In this document: positions 2,689 through 40,846 of the stretch, piece by piece | How positions within the stretch are numbered: position 1 is the first letter of the stretch | Layout of the letters: each line of letters starts with the position of its first letter | Source: Candidatus Undivivens industriae | GTDB lineage: Bacteria > Omnitrophota > Gorgyraeia > Gygaellales > Profunditerraquicolaceae | NCBI GenBank assembly: GCA_012514745.1 | Contig: JAAYZR010000029.1 | Location: forward strand, 1-47,810 | Reading direction: 5' to 3' | DNA: 47,810 bases | The notes under the pieces: model-generated | What the model saw: the letters and a program-made list of their open reading frames with translations, nothing else | What the model was told of the DNA's origin: nothing | Databases searched by the model: none | Program-made: the position numbers and the translations under genes

Positions 2689-3087
2689 ATGAAGATGAAA
2701 AAAGGATTCACTTTCGTCGAGATACTTATAACGCTCGCCATCACAGCGGTTTTTTTCATTCCCATGATGCAACTTTTCTCCGGCGCCGTTTATTCGGTGG
2801 CGATCTCGGAAGAAAAGGTTACGGCGGTAAACCTGGCGCGCTGGGAAATGGAACGGGTCAAGAACCTCAATATAACCAAGACCGGGTTAAAAAAGACCGG
2901 CGACCTGTGGATTCCGGAATTATCGGAGCCGCCGTTTGAGATAAACAATAATAAATGGAGGGTCCTGCGCAGAATAAAACCGGAGAGTGATCCTTTGGAA
3001 GTAAGCGTCGAGGTCTATAAGAGCGAAGACTTGAAGACCCCGTTGGCCTCGGTGGTCACTTTGATCGAGGATAATATATGGATATGA
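2689..3087 (+). CDS. Minor pilin, PilV/GspI-like
   Basis: KKG|FTFVEILI prepilin motif; AVNLA..EME helix. Confidence 0.8.
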   Translation: MKMKKGFTFVEILITLAITAVFFIPMMQLFSGAVYSVAISEEKVTAVNLARWEMERVKNLNITKTGLKKTGDLWIPELSEPPFEINNNKWRVLRRIKPESDPLEVSVEVYKSEDLKTPLASVVTLIEDNIWI

Positions 3088-4328
3088 ACATTCCGGCCGG
3101 GGCGAAGGAGCCGATGTCTTTTTCGGTTGAACGGCAGTCTTCACGTGGGTTCACTCTGCTGGAGCTTATTGTCGCGTTGTCCGTATCCGTGATGATCGCC
3201 TCGGCGTTGTATTTCAGCTTGAAGACGGCGTTGGAAAGTTGGGCTGTTTCGCAGGATCAGCTTATCCTGCAGCAGGTTTCATCCAGAATAATGGAAGAAC
3301 TTGTGGAAGGTCCGCTTGGAGGCAACGGTCTTAGGGATGTGCTGGAAGTGGTGGATTGTTCTCCTGTCATGGCGGTGACGGTTATGCCGTGGACGGACGA
3401 CACGCACGACGTCTCGAGCGGCATCAGTGTTTATACCTTGAATAAACACATTAAGCCGGGAACTAACGCCCCTATAGCGGAAGCGCTTCTGCCGGAATCG
3501 AACGAATACAAAGTGGTCCCGGTTACTCTGATAGAGAAAGGGAAATCCGAGGATTATCCGCAGGCCGGCCTGGATATTTCCCTTCCTGCCGCCAGCAGGC
3601 TTAGGTTTACTTATTATCCTGATTATAAGAATGATGTGGATGTCCTGACAACTTTCCGTTACGATCCGGAAGAGCAGGCGGTATTCGTGGAGGATAAGGA
3701 CGGGACAAGAGAGTTATACGCGAATCCTTTTGGAGTGAAGATAACGGAGTTCCGGATGCGTTTTTTCGACAGCGGCAACAATGAGTTGGAGGCCGGCGGA
3801 GATGATGTGTCGGCCGTTACCGGGATAGAGGTGGCTTTCAGGGCAAGAAGCGAGAACGGGACTGAAAGGGAGACAATCACTTTTGTCTCTTTACGCAATG
3901 CGCCGATGCATTCCGGCATCGTCCCTGTGAAAGAAGGCATGCGTTTCGCTATCCCCGATTCAAAAGAGATCAGGGCGTTATCTTTGTGTAATCTTTCTGG
4001 CATAGATAACGGTGACTCTATCATACTGGAAGCGAGATCGGAACACAGCAGAACGTGGCGGCTGAAAGTGCAATTTTCGAAACTATCAAGCGCCGGAAAG
4101 CCTATAATCGAAAGCTATACGGTGGAATATCCTTCCGGTAATAAGGTGTTTTCCGAACGCCCGCGCATACCGGCTGAATTCGGGCTTAACCTGTTGAATC
4201 TCGGACCGAACGGGCGCTATGATTACGGTTTTAACGATATAGACGGGGAAATCCTTCTGACCGGTAAGGTTACCCTGGAGGTAGATAAGATGGATATTGG
4301 GGGAGCGGCGATTTTTGTCCGCCCGTGA
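3078..4328 (+). CDS. Large minor pilin, PilW/GspJ-like
   Basis: SRG|FTLLELIV prepilin motif followed by a large globular domain. Confidence 0.8.
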   Translation: MDMNIPAGAKEPMSFSVERQSSRGFTLLELIVALSVSVMIASALYFSLKTALESWAVSQDQLILQQVSSRIMEELVEGPLGGNGLRDVLEVVDCSPVMAVTVMPWTDDTHDVSSGISVYTLNKHIKPGTNAPIAEALLPESNEYKVVPVTLIEKGKSEDYPQAGLDISLPAASRLRFTYYPDYKNDVDVLTTFRYDPEEQAVFVEDKDGTRELYANPFGVKITEFRMRFFDSGNNELEAGGDDVSAVTGIEVAFRARSENGTERETITFVSLRNAPMHSGIVPVKEGMRFAIPDSKEIRALSLCNLSGIDNGDSIILEARSEHSRTWRLKVQFSKLSSAGKPIIESYTVEYPSGNKVFSERPRIPAEFGLNLLNLGPNGRYDYGFNDIDGEILLTGKVTLEVDKMDIGGAAIFVRP

Positions 4329-4331
4329 GTT

Positions 4332-4387
4332 TTAATCCCCTCACTCAAACCGCAAAAATCTCCCGGTTTTCAAGCCCGGGGAGGTTT
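4332..4387. repeat. Short hairpin element resembling an IS200/IS605-family end; homologous to 47577..47740
   Basis: ttaatcccctc...aaatctcccggttttcaagcccggggaggttt; the same flanks recur at 47577-47616 and 47725-47740. Confidence 0.5.
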
Positions 4388-4390
4388 ATT

Positions 4391-4858
4391 ATGAAAAAGT
4401 TCATCGCCGCATTATCGCTATGCCGCAGGCGCGCCGCGGCGCTTGTTTTCCCGGTTGTTTTATTATTATCCGCGGCCGGCGCGTATGCAGAAGAGAAGCA
4501 ATGGTCCGGCAAATATGACGGTGTTACCTGGGAGAATGATCTTAACTGGTCTCCGCCTTCCGCGCCGTCGGCATCAGACGACGCGCGAGTAGATACCGAC
4601 GGGGCGGATGCGGCGGTAAGAGAGTCTTTCAATCTTAAGTCGCTCACCGTGGGGGGGCATACCGCGGCAATGGTGACGGTTTGGAATTCAGCCGACGGAA
4701 CGCTCCGGCCGGAGAATAGCTCCGTCCCGGCGCTTTATATAAGGAAAGGCGGGAGTGCGGTGTTACGGGGGGCAAGAGTGATTACCTTGACCGGAAGTTT
4801 TAAAAGTTCGGAAGAAACGCTTCCCGCGGAACCCGGGTTTACGTTTGAGGCGAAATAA
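4391..4858 (+). CDS. Small secreted protein of unknown function
   Basis: GGAGG RBS before ATG 4391 (in frame with ORF 4325). Sec signal ends AYA|EE. The W.G....W....NW.....P...DD motif resembles N-terminal caps of surface beta-helix proteins. Confidence 0.7.
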   Translation: MKKFIAALSLCRRRAAALVFPVVLLLSAAGAYAEEKQWSGKYDGVTWENDLNWSPPSAPSASDDARVDTDGADAAVRESFNLKSLTVGGHTAAMVTVWNSADGTLRPENSSVPALYIRKGGSAVLRGARVITLTGSFKSSEETLPAEPGFTFEAK

Positions 4859-4922: not shown

Positions 4923-7900
4923 ATGAATTGTGAAAAACGGAAGTATATGACAATAAGAGCGTGTGGTTATATTTCCGTCATTTTAATCTTTTTTCTGTCC
5001 GCTTACAGCGTCTATGCCGGACAGCTTAAATTCGAAGGTGTGCCGGTGGATATCACTACCGCCGACAACGAAGACCTCGTCATAGCTCCCGGTTCTGGAG
5101 GGAAGACTCGGATAGGCATAGCCTCGGTAAACGACAATTACGCGGTCTCGCAGAATGATCTGTTCGTCAGCGGTATCCTGGAAACCGGGGGAGCGGGATA
5201 TTTCGATACCACGCTTACGGTAACCGGGCCGTTAACCGCAAACGGCAACGTAATCCTGGGAGACGGTTCATCGGACAAGATCAGCGTGACCGGCCGGCTG
5301 GCATCGGATCTGCTGCCGAATGTGGATTCTTCTTATAATATCGGCTCGTCCATTTTCGCCTTCTCCGGGGTTTACGCCGGCAGAATATCTAGTTCAGGCT
5401 CGGCATTGATTTTATCGCCGGCGTCCGGTTACCCTTTGACTGGTAATGTCTTCAGCAATGCCGCTTCCGGAGACGAAACCGCCTATGACCTGGCTTTGAC
5501 CGTAGATAAATCAGGTTCCGGGAATTATTGCGGTGTGAAATTGGACGTTACGGAAACTCTGGCTCCCGGCAGCGCGAATAAGCTGTTGGATCTTCAGGTC
5601 TCCGGGAACAGCCGTATGCGGGTTTACAGCGGAATGAGTTCGGCCGATTACGGTCTTTTATCTCTTGGAACAGGTTATTGGGACGGGAGCTCTCCCGGAC
5701 ATTTTGCCGGTTCTGCCGACGGAACTATGCTGGCGGTTAACGCTCCGGCCGGTTTTGCCGGGAACTTCATAGATTTGCAGGCGGGAGGCGCCTCCAGGTT
5801 CTACGTTGACTACCTGGGAAACATAGTGTCTTCCGGTTCGCAGATTTATTCCGGCGATATGGTGGTTGGAGGGGATTTAGCCGTCAACGGCGGAAATTTA
5901 ACGACCACCGCCCCCGTCTTTAATTTATTGAATTCCGGCGCCTCCACAGTGAATTTTGCCCAGGGAGCAACGAATCTTAGTATGGGCTCTTCCAGCGGGA
6001 CCACGCTCGTGAACAACAGTTTAACGGCGGAGAAGGGGTTCACTCTTTCTTCCGGCGCGTTGAATCTCAGCGCCAGCTCCGGCGCTTTATCTTTATCCGG
6101 CTTGTCTCCTTCTTACATTTCTACAGGAGAGAACCCTTTTGTCATAACTTCCGGCGGCGAGTCTTCTTGGTCCGTGACAAACGGGAATCTGGCGTTATCC
6201 ACCCTTACCTCCGGTAATCTGGTTTTGACCTCCGCCGGGTCTCTAAACCTTGCCGCCGGAGCTCCCTCTGTTTGGACGTTTCCCGCTTCCACCTCCGCCC
6301 TGAATATCGCCTCCGGGCTATTGAACATCGACACAATAAATTCCAGGATTGGCGTCGGGACTGCGAGCCCGGCGCAGGCGTTCGATGTGGCCGGAACAGG
6401 CAGATTCTCCGCCGGGCTGATCACGCCCAAGCTTTACCCGGCCGCCGATTCCGCCACCGCCGTGCAGATCAATAAAGCAGACGGCACGGCGAATGTGGTG
6501 AATATTGATACTATCAACGGAAGAGTAGGCATCGGGACGACGGCGCCTGCGGCTCCCTTAGATATTATCGGGGCATATACGGATGAATTTGGACAAATTA
6601 GTTTTAGACATTCCGCAGTGGAAACTACGGCTGGATGGATTGGGGCGGGCACTCAAAGTTTGGTAATAGGCGTAAAAAATTCAATATCGAGCGATGGTAT
6701 CCGATTTGAAACGGGAACGAGTACCGGCGCAGAGGCTATGAGAATAACAAGTGCCGGTAACGTCGGTATCGGAACTACCAGCCCCGCCTACACTTTGGAC
6801 GTCAGCGGCGACATCCGGGCTACCGGGACGATCTACGGCGCAAGCGGCACGCAGGTGCCGGTGGGGATCGGCACGGAGAATTACCTCTCCAAGTGGAGCG
6901 CGAGCGGCACTCTGGGGGATTCGGTGGTGTATGACGATGGGACAAAGGTGGGGATCGGGACGACGGAACCTGAAGCGAGTCTTCATACTAATGGAGCAAT
7001 GCTTGTGACTGGTTCTTCTGTCCCTACATCTGCGGCGGGTGTTCGCATGCAGTATTCTGGCGGCCAGGGTGATATTGTTGCTTATGATTGGGGCAGTTCT
7101 TCGTATAAACCATTGGCACTTCGCGGCGCTCCAGTAACAATTACCGGCAACGTCGGCATCGGCACGACGAGCCCGGGGTCTCGGTTGGTGGTGCAAGGCA
7201 CAACAACCGACAGCACAGCTTCTGGTTTGAATGTAATAGATAATAGCGGAGCAAGCATTTTGTTTGTTCGTAATGACGGGAAAGTTGGGATTGGCACGGA
7301 AACGCCAAGCCTTTCTCTTACTATTGATAAATCTTCTAATCCTGCCATTGCCGTTAGTGTATCGGGATCTATTCGCGGGACATTGGCTGCGGCTACAGCA
7401 TCGGAAGCATATTCAAATTTTGCGACTGCGGGAGATGTCATTATACGAAGTAGCAATGAAGACCTAATCTTAACCGCTAAAAACAGTTCCGGGGCCATTC
7501 GATTTGGCGCAGGGAATCCCGATACGGAGAAAGTAACCATATTAAATTCCGGCAACGTCGGTATCGGAACTACCAGCCCCGCCTATACTTTAGACGTCAG
7601 CGGCGATATCCGGGCTACCGGAACGATCTACGGCGCAAGCGGAACGCAGGTGCCGGTGGGAATCGGCACGGAGAACTACCTTTCCAAGTGGAGCGCGAGC
7701 GGCACTCTGGGAGATTCGGTGGTGTATGACGACGGGACAAAGGTGGGGATCGGGACGACGGCACCGAGTTTTCCATTGTCCTTTGGCACAGCACTGGGTA
7801 ATAAGATTGCGCTATATGATTCCGGTTCCGGGAATGGTTATGGATTTGGTATCCAGGCAAGCTTATTACAAGTATTTTCTACAGCATCGGATACTGATAT

Positions 7901-10900
7901 AACTTTTGGTTACGGCAATAGCAGTTCGATGACAAGAAATGTAACCTTCAAAGGAAATGGTACCGTCGGGATCGGGACGACGGTACCCGGGACGAAATTG
8001 CATGTGTATGACGATAATACTGCGGTGTTGAAAATTGAGGGTGGTACCACAAGTACACCGGCAAGAAGAGCAATTTTGGATTTAAAGGGGAATCAAGCGC
8101 GGGCCACCGGTATTCTGTTTGAAAATGCTTATAATCCTTGGTTTTTCGGAACTCCATATTTGGGCGGCGATACTTTGCAAATCGGCAAACATGCTACACA
8201 ACCCGAATATCCTGCCAACGCGTTTGTGACTATAAGTAGTACCGGTAATGTCGGTATCGGGACGACCAGCCCGGCTTACAAGTTAGATGTTAGGGCTGTA
8301 ACGGAGCCGGTTGTTGCAGCGCTTAGCACTACGGCTAATGATCCCAGCAGTGGCCGGATTATTTTTGGTGTTGCTACTGGAGCTGCGATGAATGAAGGTG
8401 GTGTTTTACGCTATGACGGTAGCGCGAATCAAATTTTATTAGGAAGCAACATCAGCGATGGGATAATTAAATATCATCGCGACGCGTCCACGGATACCTT
8501 AATGATATCAAGTACCGGTAACGTCGGTATCGGAACTACCAGCCCCGCCTACACTTTAGACGTTAGCGGTGACATTCGGGCTACCGGGACGATTTACGGC
8601 GCAAGCGGCACGCAGGTGCCGGTGGGGACCGGCACGGAGAATTACCTCTCCAAGTGGAGCGCGAGCGGCACGCTGGGGGATTCGGTGGTGTATGACGACG
8701 GGACGAACGTGGGTATCGGGACGGCCAGCCCAAGTACTCTTTTGGAAATCGCTCAAGGCGATATCGTTGATATGTCTAAAGGATTGAGTATTACTAAAAC
8801 CGGGCAAAACTGGCGTCTCCATATTGATACCAATAATGCTTTAAATATCAGGGATGTAACCGGTACTACAAATAAAATTACTATAGGAAATACAGTTAAC
8901 GGTAACGTGTTATTCAATACCGGCAATGTCGGGATTGGGACGACGTCGCCGGCGGCCAAACTGGATGTATATGGAGCAATTAAACTTGGCGGAGGAACTT
9001 ATGGCGGTATTACCTACAGCGATACACCGATAGCTAATAATACCCAGTTTTTTTCTGGATATGGCAGAGCATTGTTATTTAATGCTGGTGATGTGAACGA
9101 TCCAGATATTACAATTTTAAGCTCCGGCAACGTCGGCATCGGCACGACGAGCCCGACAAAAAGATTGGAAGTGGTTGATAATAGTAGTAATGGGACGGTA
9201 AATTTAGTAAATACATTGGCTTCCGGTTATGCTTCTTTTGATTTTTGGAATAATAGTGGCGTAAAAGTAGGTACGTTCGCTTTTTCAAATCCTTCAGCCT
9301 CTGTTTACCCAAATTCTCTTTGGTTTGGTACAAGAACCAATAATCCAATGTATTTATTCACTAATGATTATTCAAATATAAGGATGGCGATAACAGAGAA
9401 TGGCAACGTCGGCATCGGAACTACGGCGCCAGGTGAAAAATTGCATATTTATGGAGCGACGGGTGTTGTTCGAAGCAAGATTCAAGCTGGCGCGGCAGAT
9501 GGATATGCGACGTTTCAAGCTGCTACTGACGCAGGTGATCTACGGCTTGGTGCTGGTGGGTCTACCGCAACTTCAATAGGTGCTGCAGGACTTGGTTATT
9601 TAGGTACTTTCGTAAATAAAGGATTGCAACTGGTGACGAATGGCAACGAACGTATGCGGATTGATAATTTGGGCAACGTCGGTATCGGAACTACCAGCCC
9701 CGCCTACACTTTAGACGTCAGCGGCGATATCCGGGCTACCGGGACGATTTATGGCGCAAGCGGAACACAGGTGCCTGTGGGGACCGGCACGGAGAATTAC
9801 CTCTCCAAGTGGAGCGCGAGCGGCACGCTGGGGGATTCGGTGGTGTATGACGACGGCACGAATGTCGGCATCGGGACGACCGCGCCGGGGGCGGCGTTGC
9901 ATGTTGCCATTGCTTCGGCAGTTGATTGGATTCGTCTTGAGAGAACTGGGACAAGGACCTGGGGTTTTAATTCATCCAATGGGCATTTAAATTTTTACGA
10001 TGAAACCGCAAGTACTCTTCCTTTTGTAGTCGAAGGAGGTGCCCCAAGCTATAGTCTATATGTTAAAAATAGCGGCAACATCGGCATCGGAACGGCGGAA
10101 CCTTCTGGTAAGTTACATGTTTCGTATCCTGGATTTAATCCGCTTATCTTGGAAAGAAATGACGATAGTGCGTTTGCGCAAGGGTTGGAATTTAGAAAAG
10201 GGAGAAAGGGGGTAGGAGTTCAAGCGGGTGATCAGTTGTTTAGAATGATGGCTTTTGGTGAATTAAACGATGGGACCTATGCTTCCGCTTCGAATCATCA
10301 GGACTTTATGACGGCGGAAGCAACTGATAGTTTTACTTCGGTGGCGCAGGGGCGACAAAGTTCGTTTTATGTTGTTCCTACTGGGAGCATTACACAAACT
10401 CTGGCATTACGATTATTGAATAATGGCAACGTTTATATGCCGGGCAACGTCGGCATTGGGACGACGACGCCAGGAGATAGATTAGAATTGGCTACAGGAG
10501 TAAATCCAGGCTTGCTGATAACCGGCAGTAATACAACGGCGGCAGAGTCCGGCTCCATTTCATTCGCTTCCAATGCTGATAATACTGATACTAGAATTAG
10601 ATTGGTTAATGACGAAGCCGGAAATATCTTAAGATTTGATGTGCGTAATACTAAAGCGAGCGCGTGGACTCCCGCTATGTCGATAATCCGTTATACAGTA
10701 GGGCTTGGCAACGTCGGCATCGGAACAACGAGCCCGGCGTATAATCTGGACGTCAGCGGAGACATTCGGGCTACCGGGACGATCTACGGCGCAAGCGGCA
10801 CGCAGGTGCCAGTGGGGACCGGCACGGAGAATTACCTCTCCAAGTGGAGCGCGAGCGGTACGCTGGGGGATTCGGTGGTGTATGACGATGGGACGAAGGT

Positions 10901-13900
10901 GGGGATCGGGACGACGACGCCAGAAGAAAAATTGCATATTGGCACTGGAAGCATATTAATCGATAATAGCCAATTTTTTAAGCAGAAAGATTCGTCCGGG
11001 ACAGCGCGCCAAGTATTTGTTGCCGATTCTTCAAACAATCTTTATCTTGGTAGTAGCTCTGGATGGACTGGCGGTTTAGTATTGCAATATCCTAATACTG
11101 CAGTTCTAAAAATTTTAAGCGGTGCTTCTGAAAAGGTGCGTATCGACAGTTCCGGTAACGTCGGCATCGGGACGACCGCGCCGGGGGCGAAGTTAAACAT
11201 TGTATCCACAGGAGCAATTCACTCTGGAAGTCCTTCTCTGCTGATTGAGGATACAACATATCGGCCAACTTTAACGCTGAACGCACAAACTGACAAAGCA
11301 CAAGAAATTGTGTTTAAGAATCAGGGGACAACGAAGTGGTGGTTTTCAAATCGGGATGAGGCTGCAGAGGGGAGTCAATTAAGATTCTATTCAGGCGACG
11401 GTATTGCTCGTTTGGCGATTAGTCAAAATGGCAACGTCGGCATCGGGACTACGAGTCCGGCTACGCCTCTGACAATAAACGCGAGTAGTGCTGATCCGCA
11501 ATTTAGAATTACTAGAAGCGCAAGTCCAACGCAAGGAATGACTATAACTGCAGGGGCGGGTACAACAATATTTGCAAGTGTTGAGGGTACTGATTCAGTA
11601 TATGGCCGCTACCAATTTGATAGTACAAAGGGTGCTTCTACGGCAACTCGTATGTATATCGATAGTAACGGCAATGTCGGCATCGGGACGACGGCGCCAG
11701 ATAGACGTTTAACAGTTAAGCAGTCTGAATCAAATGTACCTGCTATTTTAGTAACGCGTTTTGATGAAAATGATATTTCGTATAAAGTTGGTATCGGTGA
11801 GCATTGGGATGCAACCAATGGGGAAGCAATGTATTTATATTCCGCCGCTGGGGTCGCGGGCGGCCTCGATTCTTCCAATGTTAAAATGGCGATTTTCAGT
11901 AACGGCAACGTGGGCATCGGAACAACGAGCCCGGCGTATAATCTGGATGTAAGCGGAGACATCCGGGCTACCGGGACGATTTACGGCGCAAGCGGCACGC
12001 AGGTACCGGTGGGGACCGGCACGGAGAATTACCTCTCCAAGTGGAGCGCGAGCGGCACGCTGGGGGATTCGGTGGTGTATGACGACGGGACGAATGTGGG
12101 GATAGGAACGACGACGCCGCAGGGAACTCTTGATGTTAACGGTATTATTTACATAGGAGGTGCTGACTCAAATATTAGATATAGGTCTGCGGGGGGAACA
12201 TCTTTTGCATTTCACGATGGTACAAGTGCTGAAAGTGTTGTTGCTAGAGATATAAGATTGTCAAGATCATTTTCGACAACAGATGATAATGATCCAGGGG
12301 AAGGAGGTATATACGCTGACGGAATTTTGAAAATTGCAGGTGCGGGGAATAGCTATATTCTTGGCAACGTCGGTATCGGGACGACGACGCCGACGCAAAA
12401 GCTGGACCTTAGCGCCAACATTGCCAACGGTGGATTCTTGGGAACGCAAACGCTTGATACCGGGAGAAGTGAAGGCCTTTTGGTGGGAGTTTATAAAGAA
12501 ACCACCGCTGGTGCTTATACCTTTTCCGGTTTATGGCCGTATGGCGTAACGCCAAGCAACACCAATTATATTTTCGGCACCACCGGGGCAACATCTGATA
12601 CTTATTTTGGGGCGCCGACGGGAAAATCAATGTATTTTCAAGTTGCTGCCGATTCCAAGATGATAATTACCAGTGCAGGCAACGTCGGCATCGGGACGAC
12701 GACGCCGGGACAGGCTTTGGATGTAATTGGCAATGTTAGGATATATAATAGTTCCACGACAGGTAAAGGTTTCTTGGGTTATAACGGTAGCGATACTGCA
12801 CATCGTTTCTCGATGGTGAGATCGGATAGTCCAGAAACAGGTACTTTGTCGATTTCTGCAATGGGCGGTATTGGTCTCACGGGTAATAAGAGTGCTGGGT
12901 ATGAAGGTAGTAATTACCAAATGTATCTAAGTAGTGCGGGCAACGTCGGCATCGGAACAACGAGCCCGGGGACAAAATTGGACGTGTATGGTTCTTTGCC
13001 GAAGATAAGAATTAGTGATTCGAGAGACCAAGATTGGTCAACAAACAATGTTCTTGGTTCTTTGGAATTTTATACTGCCGATACGGTTACAAGCGACCCG
13101 AGAGTAGCGGCATCAATCTCGCAAATTACAGACTATTCTGGCAGCCATAATACGCCACGCGGCGCGTTGCAATTCAATGTATCTACAACGGGCGCAGCTT
13201 CTGAAGCAATGAGGATTTCTAGCGCTGGTAACGTGGGCATCGGGACAACGAGCCCGGCGTATAATCTTGACGTCAGCGGCGATATCCGGGCTACCGGGAC
13301 GATTTACGGCGCAAGCGGCACGCAGGTGCCTGTGGGGACCGGCACGGAGAATTACCTCTCCAAGTGGAGCGCGAGCGGCACGCTGGGGGATTCGGTGGTG
13401 TATGACGACGGGACGAACGTCGGCATCGGGACGACAGCGCCGGGGGCGAAATTGGAAGTGGCTCATGGAGTTGCAAATTTTAAAGTAGAGGATTTGGGTA
13501 CTTATTCAACAAAACTTACGAGTTCAGGAGGGCTAGGTCTAAATGCTAATGGTGGCGGTTCTCTAGTTTTTCTGATTGCTGACACAGAGAAGGCGAGAAT
13601 AGATACTGCGGGCAACGTGGGTATCGGGACGACGACGCCGGAATATGAATTGGATGTGAATGGCGTGATACGGGCGCAGACGGCGATTATTGCAGGTATG
13701 AATGTCGAAACTCTCTCGGCAAATAAAACTTTGACTCCGGGCAGCGACAAAATGTACCAATATCTTGATCCAAATGGAGTTTCTCGCAATATAACTTTGG
13801 CCACTGCGACTGCCGTTACAGGCGATCGTTTCATCTTGCGTAATAATGCGGCTTCTTATAATTCATCTTATTATTTGGCGATCTACCAAAGTACGACGCT

Positions 13901-16900
13901 ATTGGATTATGTTTATGTCGGTTCGATCAAAGAATATGTGTTTGATGGCGTTAATTGGATTTCCGGATCGAATGGCAGTGGAGGGTATGATAATAAGAGA
14001 TACAATATCGCACTGGGGTATAATGCCATCGCTTATGACAGTGGAACCGCGTTGGGTTATGACGCTCGAGGGTATACGAGTGGCGCGGCGGTCGGAAACA
14101 ATTCATACGGATATAATTATGGCGCGGCGTTGGGAAGCGGATCCAAGGGGATGCGCTATGGCGTAGCTATTGGTTACCAAGCCGGTAAGACCCAGACAAC
14201 ATTATTTGATCTTTATAATGTTTTGGTGGGGGCTTATGCCGGTTATCAATTAACCGGAAATTCTGGCGTTGGTTTAGGCAATATTATGGTTGGTTATCAG
14301 TCCGGTTATGACGCAACTTATTCGCCAACCACAGGCTCTAAAAACATTCTTATCGGTTTCCAGGCCGGGGCGCCGAGTAATACCACTTCTAATTTCTTGA
14401 ACATTGGCAACGCGATATTCGCTACCGGCATCAACAATTCCACTTTTCCAGCTATCAGTGAGGCTAACGTCGGGATCGGAATAACAACGCCGAATGCACC
14501 ATTGCATGTAACCGCCGCTAAAACTAATAATATTCTTGCCAGATTTGAAGATACTTCTGCCTTATCAACGGGAGAATTAACCGGGATAAGAATACAAGGC
14601 AAGAATTCAATTGGCGATAGCCAGTATCTTGATTGGTTTTTTGAGCCCAATACCGGCAAATATGGATTCGGTTATGGGACAGGATCAACACATTTGCCTA
14701 TTAGCGCCGGATTATCGTATGCAGATTTAACGGTAGATAATCAAGGCAACGTCGGCATCGGAACTACCAGTCCCGCCTACACTTTGGACGTCAGCGGCGA
14801 TATCCGGGCTACCGGGACGATCTACGGCGCAAGCGGAACACAGGTGCCGGTGGGCACCGGCACGGAGAATTACCTCTCCAAGTGGAGCGCGAGCGGCACG
14901 CTGGGGGATTCGGTGGTGTATGACGACGGGACGAACGTCGGCATCGGGACGACGGATATTACTCGTGGCAAGATAGAGATTAAACAAGGTGTCAATACTA
15001 TAAATGGTGGTATCGGTATTACTAATTCCGGGGTTGCAGGCTCATTGAGATTATGGGTTGATGCCTCAAACATTGCACGTATCAGTAGCGGGGGAACGGA
15101 AGCATCCAATTTGGTGCTTAACGGCGAAGGTATCGGTAACGTCGGTATCGGGACGACCAGTCCAAGCGAGAAATTAGATGTTAGTGGTGCTACTAATACA
15201 TATGTTCGTTCGGTTACTACCGGTGCGAGTGGTTCAGCGGTATTTAAGGCGCAAAATGATGGTACGGCAAGCATTAATATGAGGGCAGATGGGAGTGGCC
15301 TCAGCGCAAATTCTTTATTTGGGTTAAGTCGCGCTAATCTTTTAGAGCTTTTTAGTCAGAATGGTGGTTTAGTGGTGGGGACGCTTGATGCTAATGATTT
15401 GACGCTTGGCACAAATAATACGGCCAATGTAACAATAAAGAGTGCCGGTAACGTCGGTATCGGGACGACCAGTCCGAGTGAATTGTTGCAAGTAGGCGGA
15501 ACTGCCATGGGGTCGGCGAATAGGCACGCAATTTCTTTAGGTGCGGATGGTTGGGGTGTTCCTGGGGTAAGCGGTGTAAATAGCAACGGCGATAAACTCA
15601 TTTTATTTAGGAATGAAACAACGAGTATGGGTCTGGGTGTCGAGAGTAGTAATATGTGGTTCCAGGCAACGCAATCCGGCAGTGCGGGCGGATTTAAATG
15701 GTATCAAAATGGGATCGCGACAATGATATTGAATACCTCCGGCAACGTCGGCATCGGGACGACGACGCCGGCAACAAAACTGGATATATTAGGTGACCTT
15801 ACTCTGTCAACCGCAAAAACTGGTACGGCGTCGCGGCAAATAGGCATGCGCAATGGTAACAATATTAGTTTGATGCAGTTTGACTTTCCTGAAGCGACAA
15901 GTATCCAATCTGATATTAGATTTTTTCGCGAAACCAATAATTCAGTTGCGCCGCAATTGATTATTTTCAAGGCTGATGGCACTAATTCTCCGCAAACCAG
16001 CTTTTCGGCTCGTGGTACTTCTTACATTAACGCAATATCCGGCAACGTCGGTATCGGAACTACCAGCCCCGCCTACACTTTAGACGTCAGCGGCGATATC
16101 CGGGCTACCGGGACGATTTACGGCGCAAGCGGAACACAGGTGCCTGTGGGGACCGGCACGGAGAACTACCTCTCCAAGTGGAGCGCGAGCGGCACTCTGG
16201 GGGACTCGGTGGTGTATGACGACGGGACGAATGTGGGCATCGGGACGACGGCGCCGGCAACAAAGTTGGATATTGACGGAACATTGGGCGTCTCGGCCAA
16301 TTCTTCATACACAACTTCGTCGGGTGCTGGTTTTGTATTTAGGAATTCAACTTCCCCGGATTATGAAATGTATGGCGGCTACGATATGTCGATTGACGGC
16401 GCTTTTTTGCAAGGAGTTCGAGTGGCTTCCCTTATCAAACCTTTTTACATAAATCCGCGCGGAGCCGATGTTAGTCTTGGCGCTATCGGGACGGGAATGA
16501 TCGTCAAAAGTTCCGGCAGCGTCGGCATCGGGACGACGAGCCCCAGTTCTAAATTGCATGTTGGTGGGACTACGGGGAATTCATACATTTCGTTACAGGG
16601 CGGAACAACCAGCTCAGATTACGGGATCGACTGGTTATTTAGTTCAGCTTCGACGAGATACGGTAGCATTAATTTAGATTGGGATACAAGAGCGACAAAA
16701 GGATTACGAATTGCCTCCGGTTATCCTATCTCATTTTATACAGCAGTTACGGACGGTGGCGACAGTGATGCTGATGTAATAATAGATAGTTCCGGCAATG
16801 TCGGCATCGGGACGGCGACACCTGGAGACAAGTTGGAAGTATACAAAGATCAGGCAAGCACAACTCGTATTACTGTAAATAATCCAAGCGTTGCTGATGG

Positions 16901-19900
16901 GGCATTTAAACTTATTTCATTCAAGGAAGGCTCAAATGAGCAGAGTTATATAGGAGTGGCTTCTAGCGGCGATGTGATCGAGCCTCACAGAATGTTTATT
17001 TGGAATACCGAAAACGCGAGATTACAGTTTGGTACGAATGGCACAGAAAAGATGACGATTTTAGGTAGCGGCAACGTCGGTATCGGCACGACGAGCCCCG
17101 CCTACACTTTGGACGTCAGCGGCGATATCCGGGCCACCGGAACGATCTACGGCGCAAGCGGCACGCAGGTGCCTGTGGGGACCGGCACGGAGAATTACCT
17201 CTCCAAGTGGAGCGCGAGCGGTACGCTGGGGGATTCGGTGGTGTATGACGACGGGACGAACGTCGGTATTGGGACGACCAGTCCGAATGCCTTGCTTGAT
17301 ATCTTGAACACAACAATTTCCCACTTAAGATTGTCTTATGATTCATCTCATTATTCCACCATTGGTGTCGATAGCAACGGGTATACCTATTTTGGTGGCA
17401 CATCCGGGAGGTTTTATTTCAATGCTAGTAATAAAAACAATGTATTTTATGTATATGATTATACTGATGGCGCCAGTAGTTACGCTACTTATAACGGGAG
17501 CAGTTATACTCTAAGGAAGCAGGGAAATACCACAGTATCAATACCGAATAATGGCAACGCCTATTTTAATCAAGGGAACGTCGGCATCGGGACAACGACG
17601 CCGGCAAGAAAATTGCATATCTATTCAACAGAATTAGTTTCCGCAATTTTCGAAAGAGATGTTGCTGCTGATGTTGGGATTCAATTTAAAAATCCGGCTT
17701 TTAACTGGACTTTTGGGTTTGATGATAGCCAAGAGACATTTTCTATTGCTGAAGCCTCTGATTTAAATTCTGGTAGTCAACACTTTGTAATTAAATCAGG
17801 TGGCAACGTCGGTATCGGAACGACGACGCCAGGGACACAATTGGAAGTGATGAGCGCTTCCGGAGGCATTGTAAGACTTAAGAGAGACGATATTATAGTA
17901 TCAGGCGGCGAGTTGTTGGGAGAATTACAATTCTATTCCAACGACAATAATTTGGATGCCGAAGGCGTTAGGGCAAAAATATCGGCGTTCAACAAAGAAT
18001 CTGACAGCGATGGCATTAAAACAAACCTTGCCTTCTATACGGTCAATGGGGTTGCGGATAATCTTGCCGAGGCAATGAGAATTGACGAAAGCGGCAACGT
18101 CGGCATCGGCACAACGACGCCCGCCTATAAGCTGGATGTCAGCGGCGACATTCGGGCTACCGGGACGATCTACGGCGCAAGCGGAACGCAGGTACCGGTG
18201 GGCACCGGCACGGAGAATTACCTCTCCAAGTGGAGCGCGAGCGGCACGCTGGGGGATTCGGTGTTGTATGATGACGGGACGAATGTGGGCATCGGGACGA
18301 CGAGCCCCTCCTATAAATTGGATGTTAATACTACCAGCGCTCTTCACTTAGGCAATTTATATGTTAGAGGTACCGGGTATAATCCTGTTCTGGATTCTGG
18401 TGCCAGCGCTGGGTCATTAACATTTGGTAGTGGTGTTAATAATCCGGGTGGAAGAATTGTCTCTTATGGCGGGATGCACGCGACTTTACCGGGAATTATT
18501 ACATTTAGCACAGGTATTGGTGAAACTGTTCCAGAGGTAATGCGTATAGATAGCACCGGTAACGTCGGCATCGGGACGGCGGCGCCAAACGCAGTACTCG
18601 AAGTAAGTAAAGCTAATAGTGGGGCAGAGCAAGTAGCAGGTATTTTTACGAATGCGGCAATTGCTGATGCAACTGCGGTGAGTTTTAAAATGCAAAATAG
18701 TACCGATACTTCTACCAATTACGGAGCGGTGAAATTCAAAAGCTCCCGTAATGTTGGCGGTTCGGCGGATTTGCTTATTCAAGCCTCAGACAATACTGGC
18801 GTATTGCAGGACAGGTTTATTATCGATAAATCCGGCAACGTCGGTATCGGGACGACGGCGCCGGGGGCGAAATTAGAAATAACTCCCGGATCGACTGTCG
18901 GCGATGAGGCAATCAATGTAAAAGATGAGTTTATTATTAAAAAAGTAAGTACGTCTGGATATCGCATAATGGGGCGGGGTTTTAATACGATTTCCGCGGC
19001 TGATTCGTCCGGTTTTGGTTTGTTGACAAGTTCTAATACGGCGCAGTTTTTAAATGCTAAGGGTATATTTTTGGGCGCAAGTTATGCTAGCAGCGCGGCG
19101 AATGAGGGAGAAATTCGTACTGCTGCCGAGACTAATTTAATATTTTCTCCGGCGGGAAGTACCGCGATGACTATTCTTAGTGGGGGCAATGTGGGCATCG
19201 GGACGACGGCGCCGGGGGAGAAGCTCGAGGTGGCCGGGGCAATAAAATCCTTAACCTCGACTCAATACACCGGGTTTTATCTACATAACGGGTCCCATAT
19301 GGTTGCGGACTTGAAAGGATTCGACGACGATAACGATAACGGCAACCTTCAGCTTTATGATAATGGCGTTGTGGGGATAAAAATCCAGGGTGCCGGTGAA
19401 TCTTACTTTAATGGCGGCAACATCGGCATCGGCACAACGGCTCCGGGGGCGACATTAGACGTGGTAGCACGGGCTATAACGGGGCAGGAATCAGTTATGA
19501 AATGGTCTGTGGCTGATGCAGCGGATGCTTATATTGATATTAGAAATAATACTTCTACTGATGGGCAAGCGATGTTAGCTTTTAGGGGTGTTAATGCTAA
19601 TAATGTTGGACCAGCCTTAAGTTTTATTGGGGACGTTACTTCGTCTCGTGATTCTGGAACGTCCGGAGCGATTACATTTCAGGCCCGAAAAGGTTCTGGG
19701 GTGGTAGCTAATCGTCCCGCAATCGTTTTCGATAATTATACGGAAAGATTGATGACAATTTTGAGTTCCGGCAACGTGGGCATCGGGACGACGGCGCCGG
19801 GGGAGAAACTGGAAGTGAGCGGAGCTGTTCCAATGATAAAAATAATTGATCCTTCCTATCCTGACCGTAATATTAAAGTGGGAGTTGTCAATTCGGGCGG

Positions 19901-32137: not shown

Positions 32138-32204
32138 AGAGGTTTAGCATTCCGTTACCGCCCGCAGGGTGAGCCGTAGGCAATCAGGGAGCAGGATCAA
32201 AGAT

Positions 32205-32651
32205 ATGACCGTAAGAAGAATAATCACGAAACAGCTCGGCGAGCTTCTTCTGGAGAGGGGCGTGATCAGCAAGCCGGACCTTGAGAAGGCTTTGAACATA
32301 CAAAAAGAGCGCGGCGAGAACCTGATAGGCGAGATCCTTGTGGAGATGGGTGTGGCTAAAGAGGAGGATATCGCCCAGGCCATTACCGCTCAATACGGTT
32401 TTCCTTTCCTTCCCCTGACCAATTATGAAATAGCCCGGGAGATAATAAAACTCGTACCGGACCGCGTAGCCAAACAATACATGATCATACCGGTCGATAA
32501 GATCGGCGACAATCTTACCGTTGCCATGTCCAATCCGCTCAACATCCAGGCGATAGAGGACGTGGAGATGCTGACGGCCTGCCATGTCCAGACTTTTGTC
32601 TCGACCTCTTCCGATATAAAGAACGCCATAGAGAAATATTACAGTCAATAA
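32205..32651 (+). CDS. Stand-alone MshEN/T2SSE_N domain protein (putative c-di-GMP receptor)
   Basis: Tandem motifs QLGELLLERGVI...LEKAL..Q and LIGEILVEMG; VAMSNPL; no ATPase domain. ATG 32205 is preferred over GTG 32169. Confidence 0.85.
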   Translation: MTVRRIITKQLGELLLERGVISKPDLEKALNIQKERGENLIGEILVEMGVAKEEDIAQAITAQYGFPFLPLTNYEIAREIIKLVPDRVAKQYMIIPVDKIGDNLTVAMSNPLNIQAIEDVEMLTACHVQTFVSTSSDIKNAIEKYYSQ

Positions 32652-32655
32652 GACC

Positions 32656-34380
32656 GTGAACGGTGATATGATCTCACTCAAAGAACGGCTTAAAAGCATA
32701 CTTATACAAAATAAGCTGCTTACCTCCGAACAGCTGGAGCAGGCCCTGGCCATGCAGAAGGAGAAGGGCGTGCGGCTGAGCGAGATTCTGGTATCCGCCG
32801 GGTTCGTCCAGGAGACCGCATTGATGTCGGCGGTGAGTTCCGGAATAGGGCTGCCGGTCATCGACCTGAAGAGGCTGAAGGTAAATAAGGAAGTGATCGG
32901 CCTCATCCCCAAGGAAGTAGGTAAGCATTATTTGATACTTCCGCTTTCCAAGATAGGAGACACGCTGACGCTGGCGATGGCTAATCCGCTGGATGTCCTG
33001 GCCATCGAGCACGTGGAGTCGTTAACCGGTTATAAGATAAACCCGGTCATCTCCTCCTCCCGAGACATCCTGCAGGCGCTGGAATTGAACCCTGAAGCTG
33101 GCTCCGAGGACGGCGAGATGGACAAGCTGGTCCAGGAGATATCTTCCGGGCCGCTGGAATTCGTCAACGAAGAAAAAGAAATATCCCTCAGCGAGCAGGA
33201 ACTGAGCCTGATCAGCAAACAGGCCCCGGTCATACGCGTAACGGACGCGATACTGATGGAAGCCGTGCGTCAGAGGGCTTCCGACGTTCTCGTGGAGCCG
33301 TTCGACAAAAAGCTTCGGGTGCGGTTGCGCGTGGACGGCATCCTGCAGGAGATAAGCGCTCCTCCTTCCGGCATGCACGCGTCCATAATTTCGCGTCTTA
33401 AGGTAATGTCCGAGCTTAACATAGCGGAGCACCGCCTGCCTCAAGACGGCAGGTTCAGCAGGAAGATAGAGGGACGTGAGGTGGATTTCCGTATCTCCGT
33501 CATACCCACGAGTTTCGGGGAAAAAGCCGCTTTGCGCGTCCTGGATACCTCTCAGGCAACGCTCGATATAGACAAACTCGGGTTTTCGGAATACTGTGTT
33601 TGTTTGTTGAAAAAAGCCGCTTCCGTGCCGCACGGCATGATACTGGTCTGCGGTCCTACCGGCAGCGGCAAGACCACTACCTTGTATTCCATGCTGAAAT
33701 TCGTCGGTAAACCGGACAGGAACCTTGTGACGGTGGAGGACCCCGTCGAATATCAGCTTATCGGGGTCAACCAGGTAACGGTCCATCCGGAGATAGGGCT
33801 TACTTTCGCCTCCGCCCTGCGTTCTATCCTCAGGCAGGACCCGGACGTGATAATGATAGGGGAAATCAGGGATTTCGAGACAGTGGATATGTCCATTAAA
33901 AGCGCCCTCACCGGCCACCTGGTCCTTTCGACGCTTCATTCCACCACTGCGGCAGGGGCTATCGCCAGGCTGGTGAACATGGGAGTGGAACCGTATTTGA
34001 TAAATTCTTCGCTTATTTGTACCGTCTCGCAACGTCTGGTGCGCAGGATTTGTCCTCATTGCCGCGAGCAGTATGTTATGAGCAGGGAGACCGCCGAAGG
34101 GCTTAAAATTAAGCCGGACGGGGAGCTCAGGTTTTTTCGCGGTAAGGGCTGTCAGGCTTGTTCCAAGACGGGATACAGCGGACGTATAAGCATAGCCGAA
34201 GTCTTGATGCTGACACCCGGGATAAAGAACCTTATCTTTAACATGGCCCAGGAACACGTGATAAAGAAGCAGGCGGTGGAGGAAGGCATGCAGACTTTGA
34301 GGCAGCAGGGGATGAGACTGGCGGGGGAAGGAGTGACCACGGTGGAAGAGGTTTTTAGGGTAACTGCGGCCGACGAATAA
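32656..34380 (+). CDS. pilB: PilB/GspE-family assembly ATPase (paralogue 1)
   Basis: Walker A GPTGSGKTT, TVEDPVEY, LRQDPDVIMIGEIRD, STLH; Zn motif CPHC...CQAC. Confidence 0.92.
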   Translation: MNGDMISLKERLKSILIQNKLLTSEQLEQALAMQKEKGVRLSEILVSAGFVQETALMSAVSSGIGLPVIDLKRLKVNKEVIGLIPKEVGKHYLILPLSKIGDTLTLAMANPLDVLAIEHVESLTGYKINPVISSSRDILQALELNPEAGSEDGEMDKLVQEISSGPLEFVNEEKEISLSEQELSLISKQAPVIRVTDAILMEAVRQRASDVLVEPFDKKLRVRLRVDGILQEISAPPSGMHASIISRLKVMSELNIAEHRLPQDGRFSRKIEGREVDFRISVIPTSFGEKAALRVLDTSQATLDIDKLGFSEYCVCLLKKAASVPHGMILVCGPTGSGKTTTLYSMLKFVGKPDRNLVTVEDPVEYQLIGVNQVTVHPEIGLTFASALRSILRQDPDVIMIGEIRDFETVDMSIKSALTGHLVLSTLHSTTAAGAIARLVNMGVEPYLINSSLICTVSQRLVRRICPHCREQYVMSRETAEGLKIKPDGELRFFRGKGCQACSKTGYSGRISIAEVLMLTPGIKNLIFNMAQEHVIKKQAVEEGMQTLRQQGMRLAGEGVTTVEEVFRVTAADE

Positions 34381-34432
34381 CGGCCGCCGGCCAAGGAGCC
34401 CGCGCGGGTGACCGGCGGGATAAACAGAATAA

Positions 34433-36160: not shown

Positions 36161-36161
36161 G

Positions 36162-37238
36162 ATGTCCGCTGCTCCGGCACTACTTCTCTTGATAGATGAA
36201 ACCGAGATGGCCAGGTATCTTAAGGAAGAACTCCTTATAGAAGGCGGTTATCCCGTATTTCACGAGACGGACGTGGCAGCCGCCGTTTCCGCTTTCCGTA
36301 ATAATCCCTTTCCGCTTATCATAATCAAACTGGATATGCCCGGGACGGTCATGGGTGATCTTATCCGGGTTTTTCGCGAGATAGACCAGGACTGTATAAT
36401 AATAGGTTTCTTGAACGAGGCCGATCCCCGTATGATGCGCGACGGCATAAAGAGCGGGGTGTATGACTTCATTTTTAAGCCCGTCAATATGGAGAGACTG
36501 ATATTCCTCGTGAAGAAAGGGCTGGAATTGCGCCATATAATGACCTTGCACAGGCAGTTGCTGAACGATATCCAGGAGCACAATCATTCTTTGTATAAGC
36601 AGAATAACATTCTGGCGAGAAGGATAGAAGAATCGACCAAGAACATGGTGAAGCTCTATGAGGACCTCCGGAGTACTTATATGCGCACGATCAAGGTGCT
36701 CGCGCACACCATAGAAGCCAAGGATAAATATACGCGCAAGCATTCGGAGAATGTGGCCTCTTACGCGGCGGTGATCGCCAAGGAAATGGGGCTCAGCGGT
36801 GAAGAGCTGGAAAAACTTATCGAGGCCTGCGAATTGCACGACCTCGGCAAGATCGGGGTGGAAGACGTTATATTGTCGAAACCGGCCGGCCTCACTCCTG
36901 CGGAATGGGAACAGATAAAACTTCACCCCAACACCGCGGTGGAGATACTGGAGCCGTTGACGTTCCTTGAGGACGTCACAAAACTTGTTAAACAGCATCA
37001 CGAGCATTATGACGGCAGCGGGTATCCGGAAGGCCGCAGCGGAGACGACATCCTGCTGGGAGCGCGGATTATACATCTGGCGGACGCCTATGATGCCATG
37101 CGTTCGGCGCGTTCCTACCGTAAAATACCGCTGACAAAAGAAGAAACGGTAGAGGAAATAAAGAAGAATTCCGGCAAGCAGTTCGATCCTAAGGTGGTGG
37201 AAGCGTTCCTGCGGGTCGTAGACAAGGTGGACTTCTGA
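36162..37238 (+). CDS. Receiver-like domain fused to an HD-GYP cyclic-dinucleotide phosphodiesterase
   Basis: HSENV, HDLGKIG, HHEHYDGSGYP, ADAYDAM motifs; N-terminal REC fold with KP motif but Lys at the apparent phosphoacceptor position (IIIKLDMP). Confidence 0.9.
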   Translation: MSAAPALLLLIDETEMARYLKEELLIEGGYPVFHETDVAAAVSAFRNNPFPLIIIKLDMPGTVMGDLIRVFREIDQDCIIIGFLNEADPRMMRDGIKSGVYDFIFKPVNMERLIFLVKKGLELRHIMTLHRQLLNDIQEHNHSLYKQNNILARRIEESTKNMVKLYEDLRSTYMRTIKVLAHTIEAKDKYTRKHSENVASYAAVIAKEMGLSGEELEKLIEACELHDLGKIGVEDVILSKPAGLTPAEWEQIKLHPNTAVEILEPLTFLEDVTKLVKQHHEHYDGSGYPEGRSGDDILLGARIIHLADAYDAMRSARSYRKIPLTKEETVEEIKKNSGKQFDPKVVEAFLRVVDKVDF

Positions 37239-37245
37239 GGCGGTT

Positions 37246-38910: not shown

Positions 38911-40503
<1,593 letters not shown>

Positions 40504-40649
40504 ACTTTCCCCCAGGGGATTGTTTAGACCTCAACCGGTGTTCGGACCGGTTGTTGTAGTGCTTGGCTATTCTTTTAAATTCATACGAGTCGTAATGACG
40601 CGAATGCGGAGAAAGACGGTCCTGTTTATGGACCTTAGATTCTTGAATC

Positions 40650-40723
40650 GGGCCCATAGCTCAGTTGGTTAGAGCACAGCCCTGATAAGACTGGGGTCAG
40701 TGGTTCGAATCCACTTGGGCCCA
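40650..40723 (+). tRNA. tRNA-Ile(GAT)
   Basis: GGGCCCA/TGGGCCC acceptor stem, CTGATAA anticodon loop, GGTTCGAATCC T-arm; CCA not encoded. Confidence 0.96.
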
Positions 40724-40846
40724 TTAAATCAGAGCTAAGATTAAGACCCGAGAATTGAGGCGGGCGGCGGAATACCGGTTTCAGTTCTCTGCTCTTTTCC
40801 CGGCCCCTTAGTTCTTTAATCGAAGCGGTAATTCCTTCTGATTTAA

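Follow-up and report, generated by a model that had tools for sequence, protein, structure and literature searches.

A giant modular fibre gene of Candidatus Undivivens industriae with a DNA-conserved junction between its modules, probably shuffled by homologous recombination

How does a bacterial gene come to hold several dozen modules of different sequence, each behind one and the same short piece of DNA, and what keeps that piece alike? The question is raised by a stretch of 47,810 nucleotides of Candidatus Undivivens industriae (Omnitrophota; assembly GCA_012514745.1, contig JAAYZR010000029.1), here called the window. A single open reading frame (ORF) on its plus strand, at positions 4923-20771, encodes a giant fibre protein of 5,282 aa (P0001, also present in other assemblies as P0122 and P0245) and spans the whole array of modules. 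An earlier note, made from the letters alone, had proposed that the GC-rich junction opening each AT-rich module is a crossover site at which foreign binding domains are captured, deleted or shuffled in frame, in the manner of an integron, shufflon or CRISPR array. We show here that the in-frame array with its DNA-conserved junctions is real and far beyond chance. The whole is probably explained by a giant fibre gene resembling those of the mosaic adhesive trimer (MAT) fibres of Bdellovibrio, with modules shuffled by homologous recombination at junctions and repeats and a junction kept by conversion.

With 57 occurrences, the motif [VI]G[IV]G[TI] divides the protein into 58 segments. These comprise an N-terminal domain of 473 aa (4923-6341), 43 variable modules, 11 constant repeats (an internal VPVGIGT divides two of them) and a C-terminal domain of 137 aa (20358-20768); all features of the gene lie on the plus strand. 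The earlier count of about 43 modules was thus correct. The array occupies 6342-20357, each module and repeat opening with a GNVGIGT-type junction; its start, at about 6342, lies slightly upstream of the proposed 6963. The N-terminal domain begins with a hydrophobic, signal-peptide-like stretch (about residues 1-32, by eye), has no match in Pfam and is conserved in all six alleles compared below, with 91-92% amino acid identity to two of them, P0123 and P0124. The C-terminal domain is conserved in all five alleles that reach the end of the gene. Variable modules measure 26-284 aa (median 90 aa across alleles). The constant repeat measures 62 aa or 186 nt (GC 0.61-0.66). Its copies lie at 6756-6941, 7551-7736, 8517-8702, 9672-9857, 10707-10892, 11904-12089, 13227-13412, 14745-14930, 16041-16226, 17070-17255 and 18093-18278, with 88-93% amino acid identity to the copy used as query, flanks included.

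Among the interiors of the variable modules, BLASTP found one pair at E 5e-6 and no other below 0.006. When two halves of the module set were compared profile against profile, only about 10 residues after the junction aligned. Neither comparison lends support to a common descent of the interiors, and the earlier statement that no two variable modules are alike is borne out by both. What all modules have in common is the frame '..MRI..GNVGIGTT.P..KL.V.G'. The word 'unrelated' is true of their sequences; yet the modules match segments of one solved fibre family. A phmmer search of the PDB retrieved MAT fibres of Bdellovibrio (8OND, E 4.9e-8; 8OL4, 7.6e-8; 8OML, 5.6e-5; 8OJN, 1.5e-4), with alignments that pass through the junction motif ('...MRI..GNVGIGT....KL.V'), which shows homology to this family at the level of sequence. 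In the accessible part of PMC10769870, MAT fibres are described as secreted, with intertwined trimeric beta-helix segments bounded by conserved capping loops, and with S74 chaperone or other tip domains at their ends, the tips having been swapped in evolution. The capping-loop consensus is printed there as V-G-G/N-pi-x-x-P-x-x-x-L. Our VGIGTTxPxxKL, with its 57 recurrences, aligns with MAT sequences and has one residue more before the Pro than this printed consensus. In the Bdellovibrio members a signal peptide precedes a conserved, beta-rich N-terminal domain of about 130 aa.

A structural model of three copies of residues 1108-1401, which contain three variable modules and one constant repeat, gave an ipSAE of 0.82, against 0.00 for the best of three controls. 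In calibration, the pass mark of the tool was reached by 21 of 30 solved same-chain pairs and by none of 23 single chains. Partner pLDDT did not fall below 79, and at least 93% of contacts were common to the runs. The contacts extend along all 294 residues; the model is one continuous intertwined trimer. Against Pfam and NCBIfam the whole protein has one match only, in its C-terminal domain, to the intramolecular chaperone Peptidase_G2 (PF11962; E 1.9e-6, 27.9 bits against a cut-off of 25), covering only profile positions 46-98 of 228. The same domain resembles the PDB chaperone domain 28nb (E 9.4e-4); the phi29 appendage 3gqh is reached only at E 0.58. The product would accordingly be a very long secreted fibre of the MAT structural kind. 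Three chains would intertwine into a string of beta-rich segments of about 90 aa, each delimited by the conserved turn GNVGIGTTxPxxKLxV, and the fibre is predicted to terminate in a folding and self-cleaving domain of the Peptidase_G2 type. It probably serves a small bacterium, itself probably attached to a host, as a variable adhesin or surface coat. Relatives are many: the last 451 residues have matches in at least 2,627 proteins (248-790 aa), and the array has matches at E <=1e-10 in 424 further ones (2,905-9,244 aa). Many have Peptidase_S74 ends, and their source names include Patescibacteria groups, Omnitrophica, Elusimicrobia and Burkholderiales.

A few cassettes are unusually long. The longest module of the window (284 aa, 13611-14462) has no match in Pfam and contains, by eye, short Gly/Ala/Asn-rich repeats, which we take to resemble the heads of trimeric adhesins. 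With it goes module family 50 (221 aa, in P0123 and P0124). Short Asn/Ser/Ala/Gly repeats, again judged by eye, liken these long cassettes to the heads of trimeric autotransporter adhesins, and the array may combine different fold types.

The consensus of the 24-nt junction is GGCAACGTCGGCATCGGGACGACG. It is found with up to four mismatches at 40 sites of the window, all inside the gene and in frame and none elsewhere in the window, and with up to three mismatches at 34 sites of the whole 1.55-Mb genome, all on the plus strand within the fibre gene. Two copies are exact (12678-12701 and 15741-15764). Position by position, the 33 junctions that separate variable modules most often use GGC (22), AAC (23), GTC (25), GGC (22), ATC (28), GGG (23), ACG (24) and ACG (22). 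Module interiors write the same amino acids mostly with codons ending in A or T; the shares there are 0.21 for AAC, 0.08 for GTC, 0.19 for ATC and 0.21 for ACG. We took one junction from each of the 36 module families with GNVGIGTT and calculated the mean pairwise identity of third positions. It was 0.632; simulated from the codon usage of the genome or of module interiors, it was 0.335 and 0.330, respectively (sd 0.014 each), and none of 2000 simulations reached the observed value (z = 21.6 against both nulls). As the earlier note had it, the junction is conserved at synonymous positions, and, measured against codon usage, this conservation goes far beyond amino acid constraint.

Base composition follows the same boundaries. 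The G+C content of third codon positions (GC3) forms an island at codons -1 to +7 of the junction (0.71-0.95), most flanking codons being at 0.24-0.5 and three at 0.69-0.71. GC3 is at most 0.50 in 39 of the 43 variable modules and 0.74-0.84 in the constant repeats. It scales with conservation, from about 0.4 in variable interiors through 0.58 in the N-terminal domain to 0.7-0.95 in junction and constant repeats. The 639 other long ORFs of the genome have a mean GC3 of 0.653 (sd 0.063, 5th percentile 0.538), far above that of the variable modules. The G+C counts that had first drawn attention to the contrast (19/60 at 9301-9360, 39/60 at 6841-6900) are exact.

Are the modules fixed in the gene, or do they move? 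Six alleles were compared: that of the window, P0123 (4,483 aa) and P0124 (4,430 aa) from a protein collection, compared as protein, and L030, L031 and L032 from a metagenome scan, with their DNA. Flanks match those of the window at 96-98.6% (L030, L032) and 92-94.5% (L031) identity, and therefore the last three are alleles of one locus from close strains or sister lineages. The six proteins were cut at the junctions and the pieces clustered at 75% identity into module families. Modules 1 and 2 stand at the start in all six alleles, and modules 46 and 47 at the end in the five that reach the end of the gene, L032 being cut off before. Between these shared ends, the strings of modules differ among the alleles in both order and content; they are not fixed across close strains. 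There are 87 non-constant families, 46 of them in at least two alleles, 41 private and seven in all six. Different upstream neighbours (at least two) are found for 18 families, for 15 of them when only non-constant neighbours are counted, and different downstream neighbours for 21; module 39 is preceded by 38, 57, 20, 71 or 89, depending on the allele. The events include deletions of single modules (14 from between 13 and 15, 66 from between 65 and 67), a duplication (16-16) and replacements. Shared modules of P0123 and P0124 show 99.3% identity, yet the distal thirds of the two are different. L030 and L032 are 99.4% identical in DNA, yet two single-module events apart. Between the window and L030 the identity of shared modules ranges from 0.82 to 0.99, a spread that reads as a mosaic of histories. 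Shorter database fragments supply further new adjacencies.

Some unusual adjacencies were met again in assemblies independent of each other: 13>15 in four alleles, 37>33 and 20>51 in L030 and L032, 43>50>73>46 in L030 and P0002, and 39>46 in L031 and P0003. Every allele keeps one open frame (3,299-5,282 aa), and three assemblies of the window's own allele agree in all but one residue. In the congener assemblies G001-G004 none of the modules was found; G001 alone has the N-terminal domain, in a gene broken at the contig end after 1.3 kb.

Where the modules were joined differently can be read from the DNA alleles. The same module with different upstream neighbours in two alleles gave 23 comparisons, three of which were label artefacts (constant repeat versus its split form) and were removed. 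In all 20 informative comparisons, similarity ends at base 0 of the junction. Where the upstream neighbours differ (n=32), mismatch density falls from 0.64 upstream to 0.13-0.23 over junction bases 0-33 and 0.09 in the module body; the corresponding values for pairs with a common neighbour (n=77) are 0.04, 0.04-0.055 and 0.02. Together, the 20 stops and the mismatch profile place the crossovers within the junction, in conserved motifs between variable segments, as expected of motif-mediated recombination. The proposal of a crossover site stands: modules are joined differently in related strains, and comparison of the alleles identifies the junction as the place of in-frame exchange, deletion and duplication. 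In alleles with the same neighbour (L030-L032, window), the junction, though the most conserved part among modules, is about twice as polymorphic as the bodies. Such a higher turnover between alleles fits the expectation from exchange among junction copies. None of the three outcomes named in the earlier note as refuting it (a fixed module order and content, module GC at the genome background, junction DNA no more conserved than the amino acids require) was observed.

These data suggest a mechanism. Whole modules would be deleted, duplicated, replaced and re-ordered by homologous recombination, with crossing over in the 24-33-nt junction and, probably, in the 186-nt constant repeat too; the frame would always be kept and both ends would stay fixed. 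The partners would be copies within the gene, through unequal exchange, or different alleles, and DNA taken up from other strains may contribute. Junction copies would convert one another, which would bring them to near identity at synonymous sites; that identity would in turn preserve the junction as a place for crossing over. A GC bias of this conversion, or additional selection on the DNA, is possible. Variable interiors, which would rarely pair, would drift towards A+T. The rise of GC3 with conservation fits a GC-biased repair of heteroduplexes where pairing happens, a reading that builds on the concept of GC-biased gene conversion in bacteria. RecA and ComEC are encoded in the genome. General homologous recombination of the RecA type is the likely mechanism, since RecA is present and neither a reverse transcriptase nor a nearby recombinase nor silent cassettes were found, as detailed below.

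The following points weigh against this explanation. Every allele was assembled from short reads of metagenomes. As the 186-nt constant repeat is longer than common k-mers, any single contig could show the blocks between repeats in a wrong order; the safe evidence consists of adjacencies between two variable modules and of replicated adjacencies only. Rearrangement is deduced from the comparison of alleles and was not caught in progress. Parts of the stretch are held by 22 runs from 17 studies, and Logan contigs of four of them (X1, X2, X3 and X5) were examined; those of X1 and X2, the runs with the window's own sequence, showed no alternative joints. (The sides of the many joints in X3 and X5 measured only 20-27 nt, which is the junction itself, and could not be used; loose ends of Logan contigs sit at junctions and could stem from other genes. 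These joints and ends were counted neither for nor against rearrangement or habitat.) The pathway is deduced from presence and absence of genes in a draft genome that is 94.7% complete and may lack repeats. The score of the trimer model may in part echo the likeness to solved MAT trimers. Finally, conversion within genes alone does not explain why one GC-rich, CpG-maximal 24-mer is found in many phyla.

This last point goes beyond the window. At least 120 stretches of the genome collection contain the exact 24-mer, where by our own arithmetic chance would give about 0.004. Among the matches listed, the carriers are, by record name, many Patescibacteria groups, DPANN archaea, methanogens, Gammaproteobacteria, Elusimicrobia, Planctomycetales, Bdellovibrionales, Acidobacteriota and Bacteroidia, some of them on contigs of 0.4-0.6 Mb. 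At 80 loci among these matches, the GC3 of the host ORF outside junctions is 0.16-0.76 and that of the junction codons 0.59-1.0, the island comprising exactly codons 0-7. Loci selected by exact match are a biased sample. A less biased one is given by 60 further genomes of one order, searched with a degenerate pattern and not chosen by DNA. There, 33 of the 60 genomes contained 138 sites, 16 with the exact 23-mer and 12 with a second GC-rich haplotype (counted by hand); uniform synonymous choice would give 0.02 exact 23-mers, again by our own arithmetic. The reversed pattern, as a control, found nothing in the same 60 genomes.

In other genomes (G075, G063, G104 and G103) junction haplotypes tend to be specific to the fibre gene and to recur over its length; in G075 two haplotypes alternate along one contig. 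Some genes in the sample of one order, for example in G063 and G104, carry a fully AT-type junction, uniform within the gene. This uniformity points to homogenisation within genes, and the AT-type junctions of these relatives indicate that the GC-rich form is not required for the fold.

Candidate causes of the recurrence across phyla are selection at the DNA level, biased conversion drawn to a shared attractor, and horizontal exchange over wide distances. A tentative reading, which we regard as possible rather than probable, takes the 24-nt junction as a 'universal adaptor' at the DNA level, the crossover site of a prokaryote-wide fibre family kept GC-rich even in AT-rich Patescibacteria and DPANN. 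It would constitute a recombinase-free cassette system that passes modules in frame from place to place in a gene, from strain to strain and perhaps even across distant lineages. Its site would be maintained either through selection for evolvability or through biased conversion at a recombination hot spot.

The conservation of the junction DNA could also be put down mainly to selection on the nucleic acid or on translation, with shuffling as a by-product of identity. The junction would then be kept mainly for accurate or paced decoding of the turn, or for a small hairpin in mRNA or DNA. In favour of this view, the GC-rich form persists in ORFs whose other codons have a GC3 of 0.16-0.40. At 57 non-exact sites of 21 such loci, ascertained by one exact match, the codons are GGC 48, AAC 48, GTC 48, GGC 38, ATC 43, GGG 37, ACG 44 and ACG 28, and the excess of exact 23-mers in the 60 genomes points the same way. 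The 24-mer has five CpG, the maximum, and its 5-bp hairpin (-6.0 kcal/mol) is among the top 3.4% of the 24,576 synonymous versions. However, 31% of the 64 versions with G or C at every third base fold at least as well, stem positions 9 and 21 do not covary (G with G 20 times, G with C never) and the second haplotype breaks the stem. The hairpin idea was dropped, the short stem showing no covariation and being ordinary among GC-ending versions. GGG and ACG are not the codons preferred by the genome for Gly and Thr, and different Gly positions use different Gly codons. The polymorphism of the junction between alleles, higher than that of module bodies, also fits exchange better than strict purifying selection. 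We therefore consider selection as the main cause unlikely.

Programmed variation by a dedicated enzyme, at high frequency within a clone, would suit the cassette-like anatomy, whether through a site-specific recombinase, a diversity-generating retroelement or conversion from silent cassettes. Moreover, several module events separate two alleles whose shared modules have 99.3-99.4% identity, a high rate relative to point mutation. The genome offers little for any of the three. RVT_1 has no match in it, so that no reverse transcriptase accompanies the array as a diversity-generating retroelement with its template repeat would demand. Phage_integrase (tyrosine recombinase) has two matches only, each in an open frame of about 300 aa on another contig (C13 and C29), and no recombinase is found among the window ORFs scanned against Pfam, in agreement with the earlier remark that the window shows neither enzyme. 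All 34 genomic junction copies lie on one strand inside the gene and none is inverted; shufflons and integrons have an adjoining site-specific recombinase and oriented or inverted sites. Unexpressed donor cassettes of the vls or pilS type are missing as well: tblastn of all 58 segments found nothing outside the gene, and no junction copy lies outside it in this draft genome. To this may be added, as weak evidence, the lack of alternative joints in the two runs with the window's own sequence. These absences refer to a genome of 94.7% completeness. We judge programmed variation very improbable. The analogy with integrons, shufflons and CRISPR arrays accordingly finds no counterpart in the genome, and the suggested genome-wide search turned up no silent module arrays and, as recombinases, only the two on other contigs. 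The capture of foreign domains fared no better. Seven modules private to the window among the six alleles (12090-14744) have closest relatives outside the lineage of at most 44% identity, and the congener assemblies lack them, so that a foreign origin finds no support for these modules; a single 99% match (P0246) is another allele fragment.

Could the allele differences be artefacts, with co-occurring strains misjoined at junctions or repeats and one true, fixed order behind them? In favour of this are the 11 copies of a repeat that exceeds the usual k-mers in length, the congener gene interrupted where its contig stops, and the origin of L030 and L031 from one metagenome. However, alleles share only about 24-33 nt at the junction. 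This is shorter than the final k-mers of the usual assemblers. The 15 families with several non-constant upstream neighbours, the open frame kept in every allele and the concordance of three assemblies of the window allele all speak against misjoining, and an artefact does not explain unusual adjacencies that recur across independent assemblies and sources. We find such an explanation hardly credible. Least credible of all is an ordinary diverged tandem-repeat protein whose junction is an old repeat core, alike in DNA by common descent and with no special exchange: the one frame in all modules and the abundance of such repeats (two sub-fragments have at least 3,897 and at least 2,627 matches among database proteins, and the array has the 424 giant ones) agree with it, but the module interiors are saturated, without similarity and with different codon usage, so that neutral junction sites should be saturated too, yet they are 0.63 identical, and this together with whole-module differences between alleles, with breakpoints at the junction, contradicts it.

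How does the homologous shuffling proposed here compare with known systems? Shufflons and integrons likewise offer cassette-like alternative parts of a surface or adhesin gene; the R64 shufflon (Rci/pilV) varies a pilus-tip adhesin. Both need a dedicated tyrosine recombinase and specific, partly inverted sites. A nearby recombinase and inverted sites were not found in our case. In Borrelia vlsE and Neisseria pilE/pilS, short conserved repeats flank variable cassettes as they do here, exchange is by recombination and silent donor arrays lie in the same genome. In contrast, no silent arrays were found in this genome, and the variation is known between strains.

Closest in way of working are the T-even phage tail-fibre adhesins gp37/gp38, which follow the same principle. 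According to the accessible part of PMC3157838, conserved glycine-rich motifs and His boxes flank their hypervariable segments, and exchanges fall in or near the conserved motifs and produce chimeric adhesins (PMC3157838, citing Tetart 1996, 1998). Their four short loops belong to a single small domain encoded by a phage gene, whereas the present gene is chromosomal with about 43 whole modules, and we found no report in the accessible part of PMC3157838 of a junction identical at synonymous sites across phyla. MAT fibres are closest in structure: secreted, trimeric, intertwined beta-rich shafts with segments bounded by a conserved loop motif, ending in a chaperone/protease domain or another tip, with a mosaic evolution by exchange of parts inferred for them in the accessible part of PMC10769870. 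Compared with these, our protein is about five times longer (5,282 versus about 1,000 aa), its whole shaft varies and not only its tip, it ends in Peptidase_G2 instead of S74, and a 62-aa constant repeat is interspersed 11 times. Conservation of junction DNA and population-level shuffling of the shaft are not described in that part of PMC10769870.

Giant proteins of Omnitrophota have been reported, in the accessible parts of 10.1101/2023.11.21.568195 and 10.64898/2026.06.07.730766, as very long secreted proteins near genes of type II secretion systems (T2SS) or type IV pili, with a proposed role in adhesion of a small, host-dependent bacterium. The classes described there (Archaeovorins, dockerin-type, multi-enzyme, tandem Pfam repeats) differ in domain content from the fibre gene. 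The term 'tail fiber' does not appear in those parts of either source, nor do 'S74' and 'mosaic' in that of the latter. That the junction is not in print rests on our literature searches, which returned no paper for NVGIGT, papers for VGIGT of which those listed look unrelated by title, and none on giant tail-fibre proteins of Patescibacteria with S74. Mosaic fibres and recombination at conserved motifs are thus already known, from phage adhesins and Bdellovibrio MAT fibres. New are the scale, the giant chromosomal gene, the mapped breakpoints and the conservation of junction DNA across phyla. As to scale, one gene holds about 43 modules, a handful of alleles hold at least 87 families and the breakpoints map to a link of 24-33 nt. 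With hundreds of giant relatives in Patescibacteria, Omnitrophota and other little-known groups, the same mechanism may shape the partner-recognising surfaces of ultra-small host-attached microbes. An identical GC-rich junction in genomes of differing composition makes a testable case for GC-biased gene conversion in prokaryotes and for selection on a recombination site inside coding sequence. It also presents a natural design rule for the swapping of fibre modules.

Upstream of the fibre gene, likewise on the plus strand, lie a homologue of T2SS protein F (527-1741), two genes for proteins with a pilin N-methylation motif (1776-2282 and 3078-4328) and an ORF without assignment (4325-4858). 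The 416-aa pilin-like gene also precedes the fibre alleles in L030 and L032. A T2SS-F and pilin-like context is known for other giant genes of Omnitrophota from the accessible part of 10.1101/2023.11.21.568195. The window has a second pilus and secretion cluster at 32169-38454, with a MshEN-domain protein, two ATPases of the PilB/GspE type, a response regulator of the HD-GYP type and a second T2SS-F gene; it is preceded by a GGDEF protein.

Among close homologues, P0005, P0246 and P0275 bear Omnitrophota source names. P0242, a 580-aa N-terminal fragment in the same 90% cluster, has the source name Syntrophales, other close fragments being named Omnitrophica; this mismatch is probably a difference in binning. 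The genome (G000) contains three more very long ORFs, of 6,069, 4,439 and 3,477 aa (C8 67128-85338, minus strand; C24 58309-71629, minus strand; C20 4889-15323, plus strand). None of them has modules or junctions in common with the fibre gene; the ORF of 6,069 aa also has a low GC3 (0.51). The ComEC (Competence) match at G000:C4:67855-68610 has one in-frame TGA inside a frame of 528 aa, which could reflect a broken gene, a sequencing error or a recoding event.

A complete rRNA operon occupies 38911-46076, with 16S (38911-40499), tRNA-Ile, tRNA-Ala, 23S (41073-45334) and 5S (45960-46076). The 23S span exceeds the model length by about 1.3 kb and includes a group I intron match (43725-43930), just upstream of which lies an ORF with a LAGLIDADG endonuclease domain (43182-43712, E 7.9e-18). 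Between 23S and 5S there is a tandem repeat of 204 nt in 2.9 copies (45402-45997, 97% matches), the end of which overlaps the start of the 5S match.

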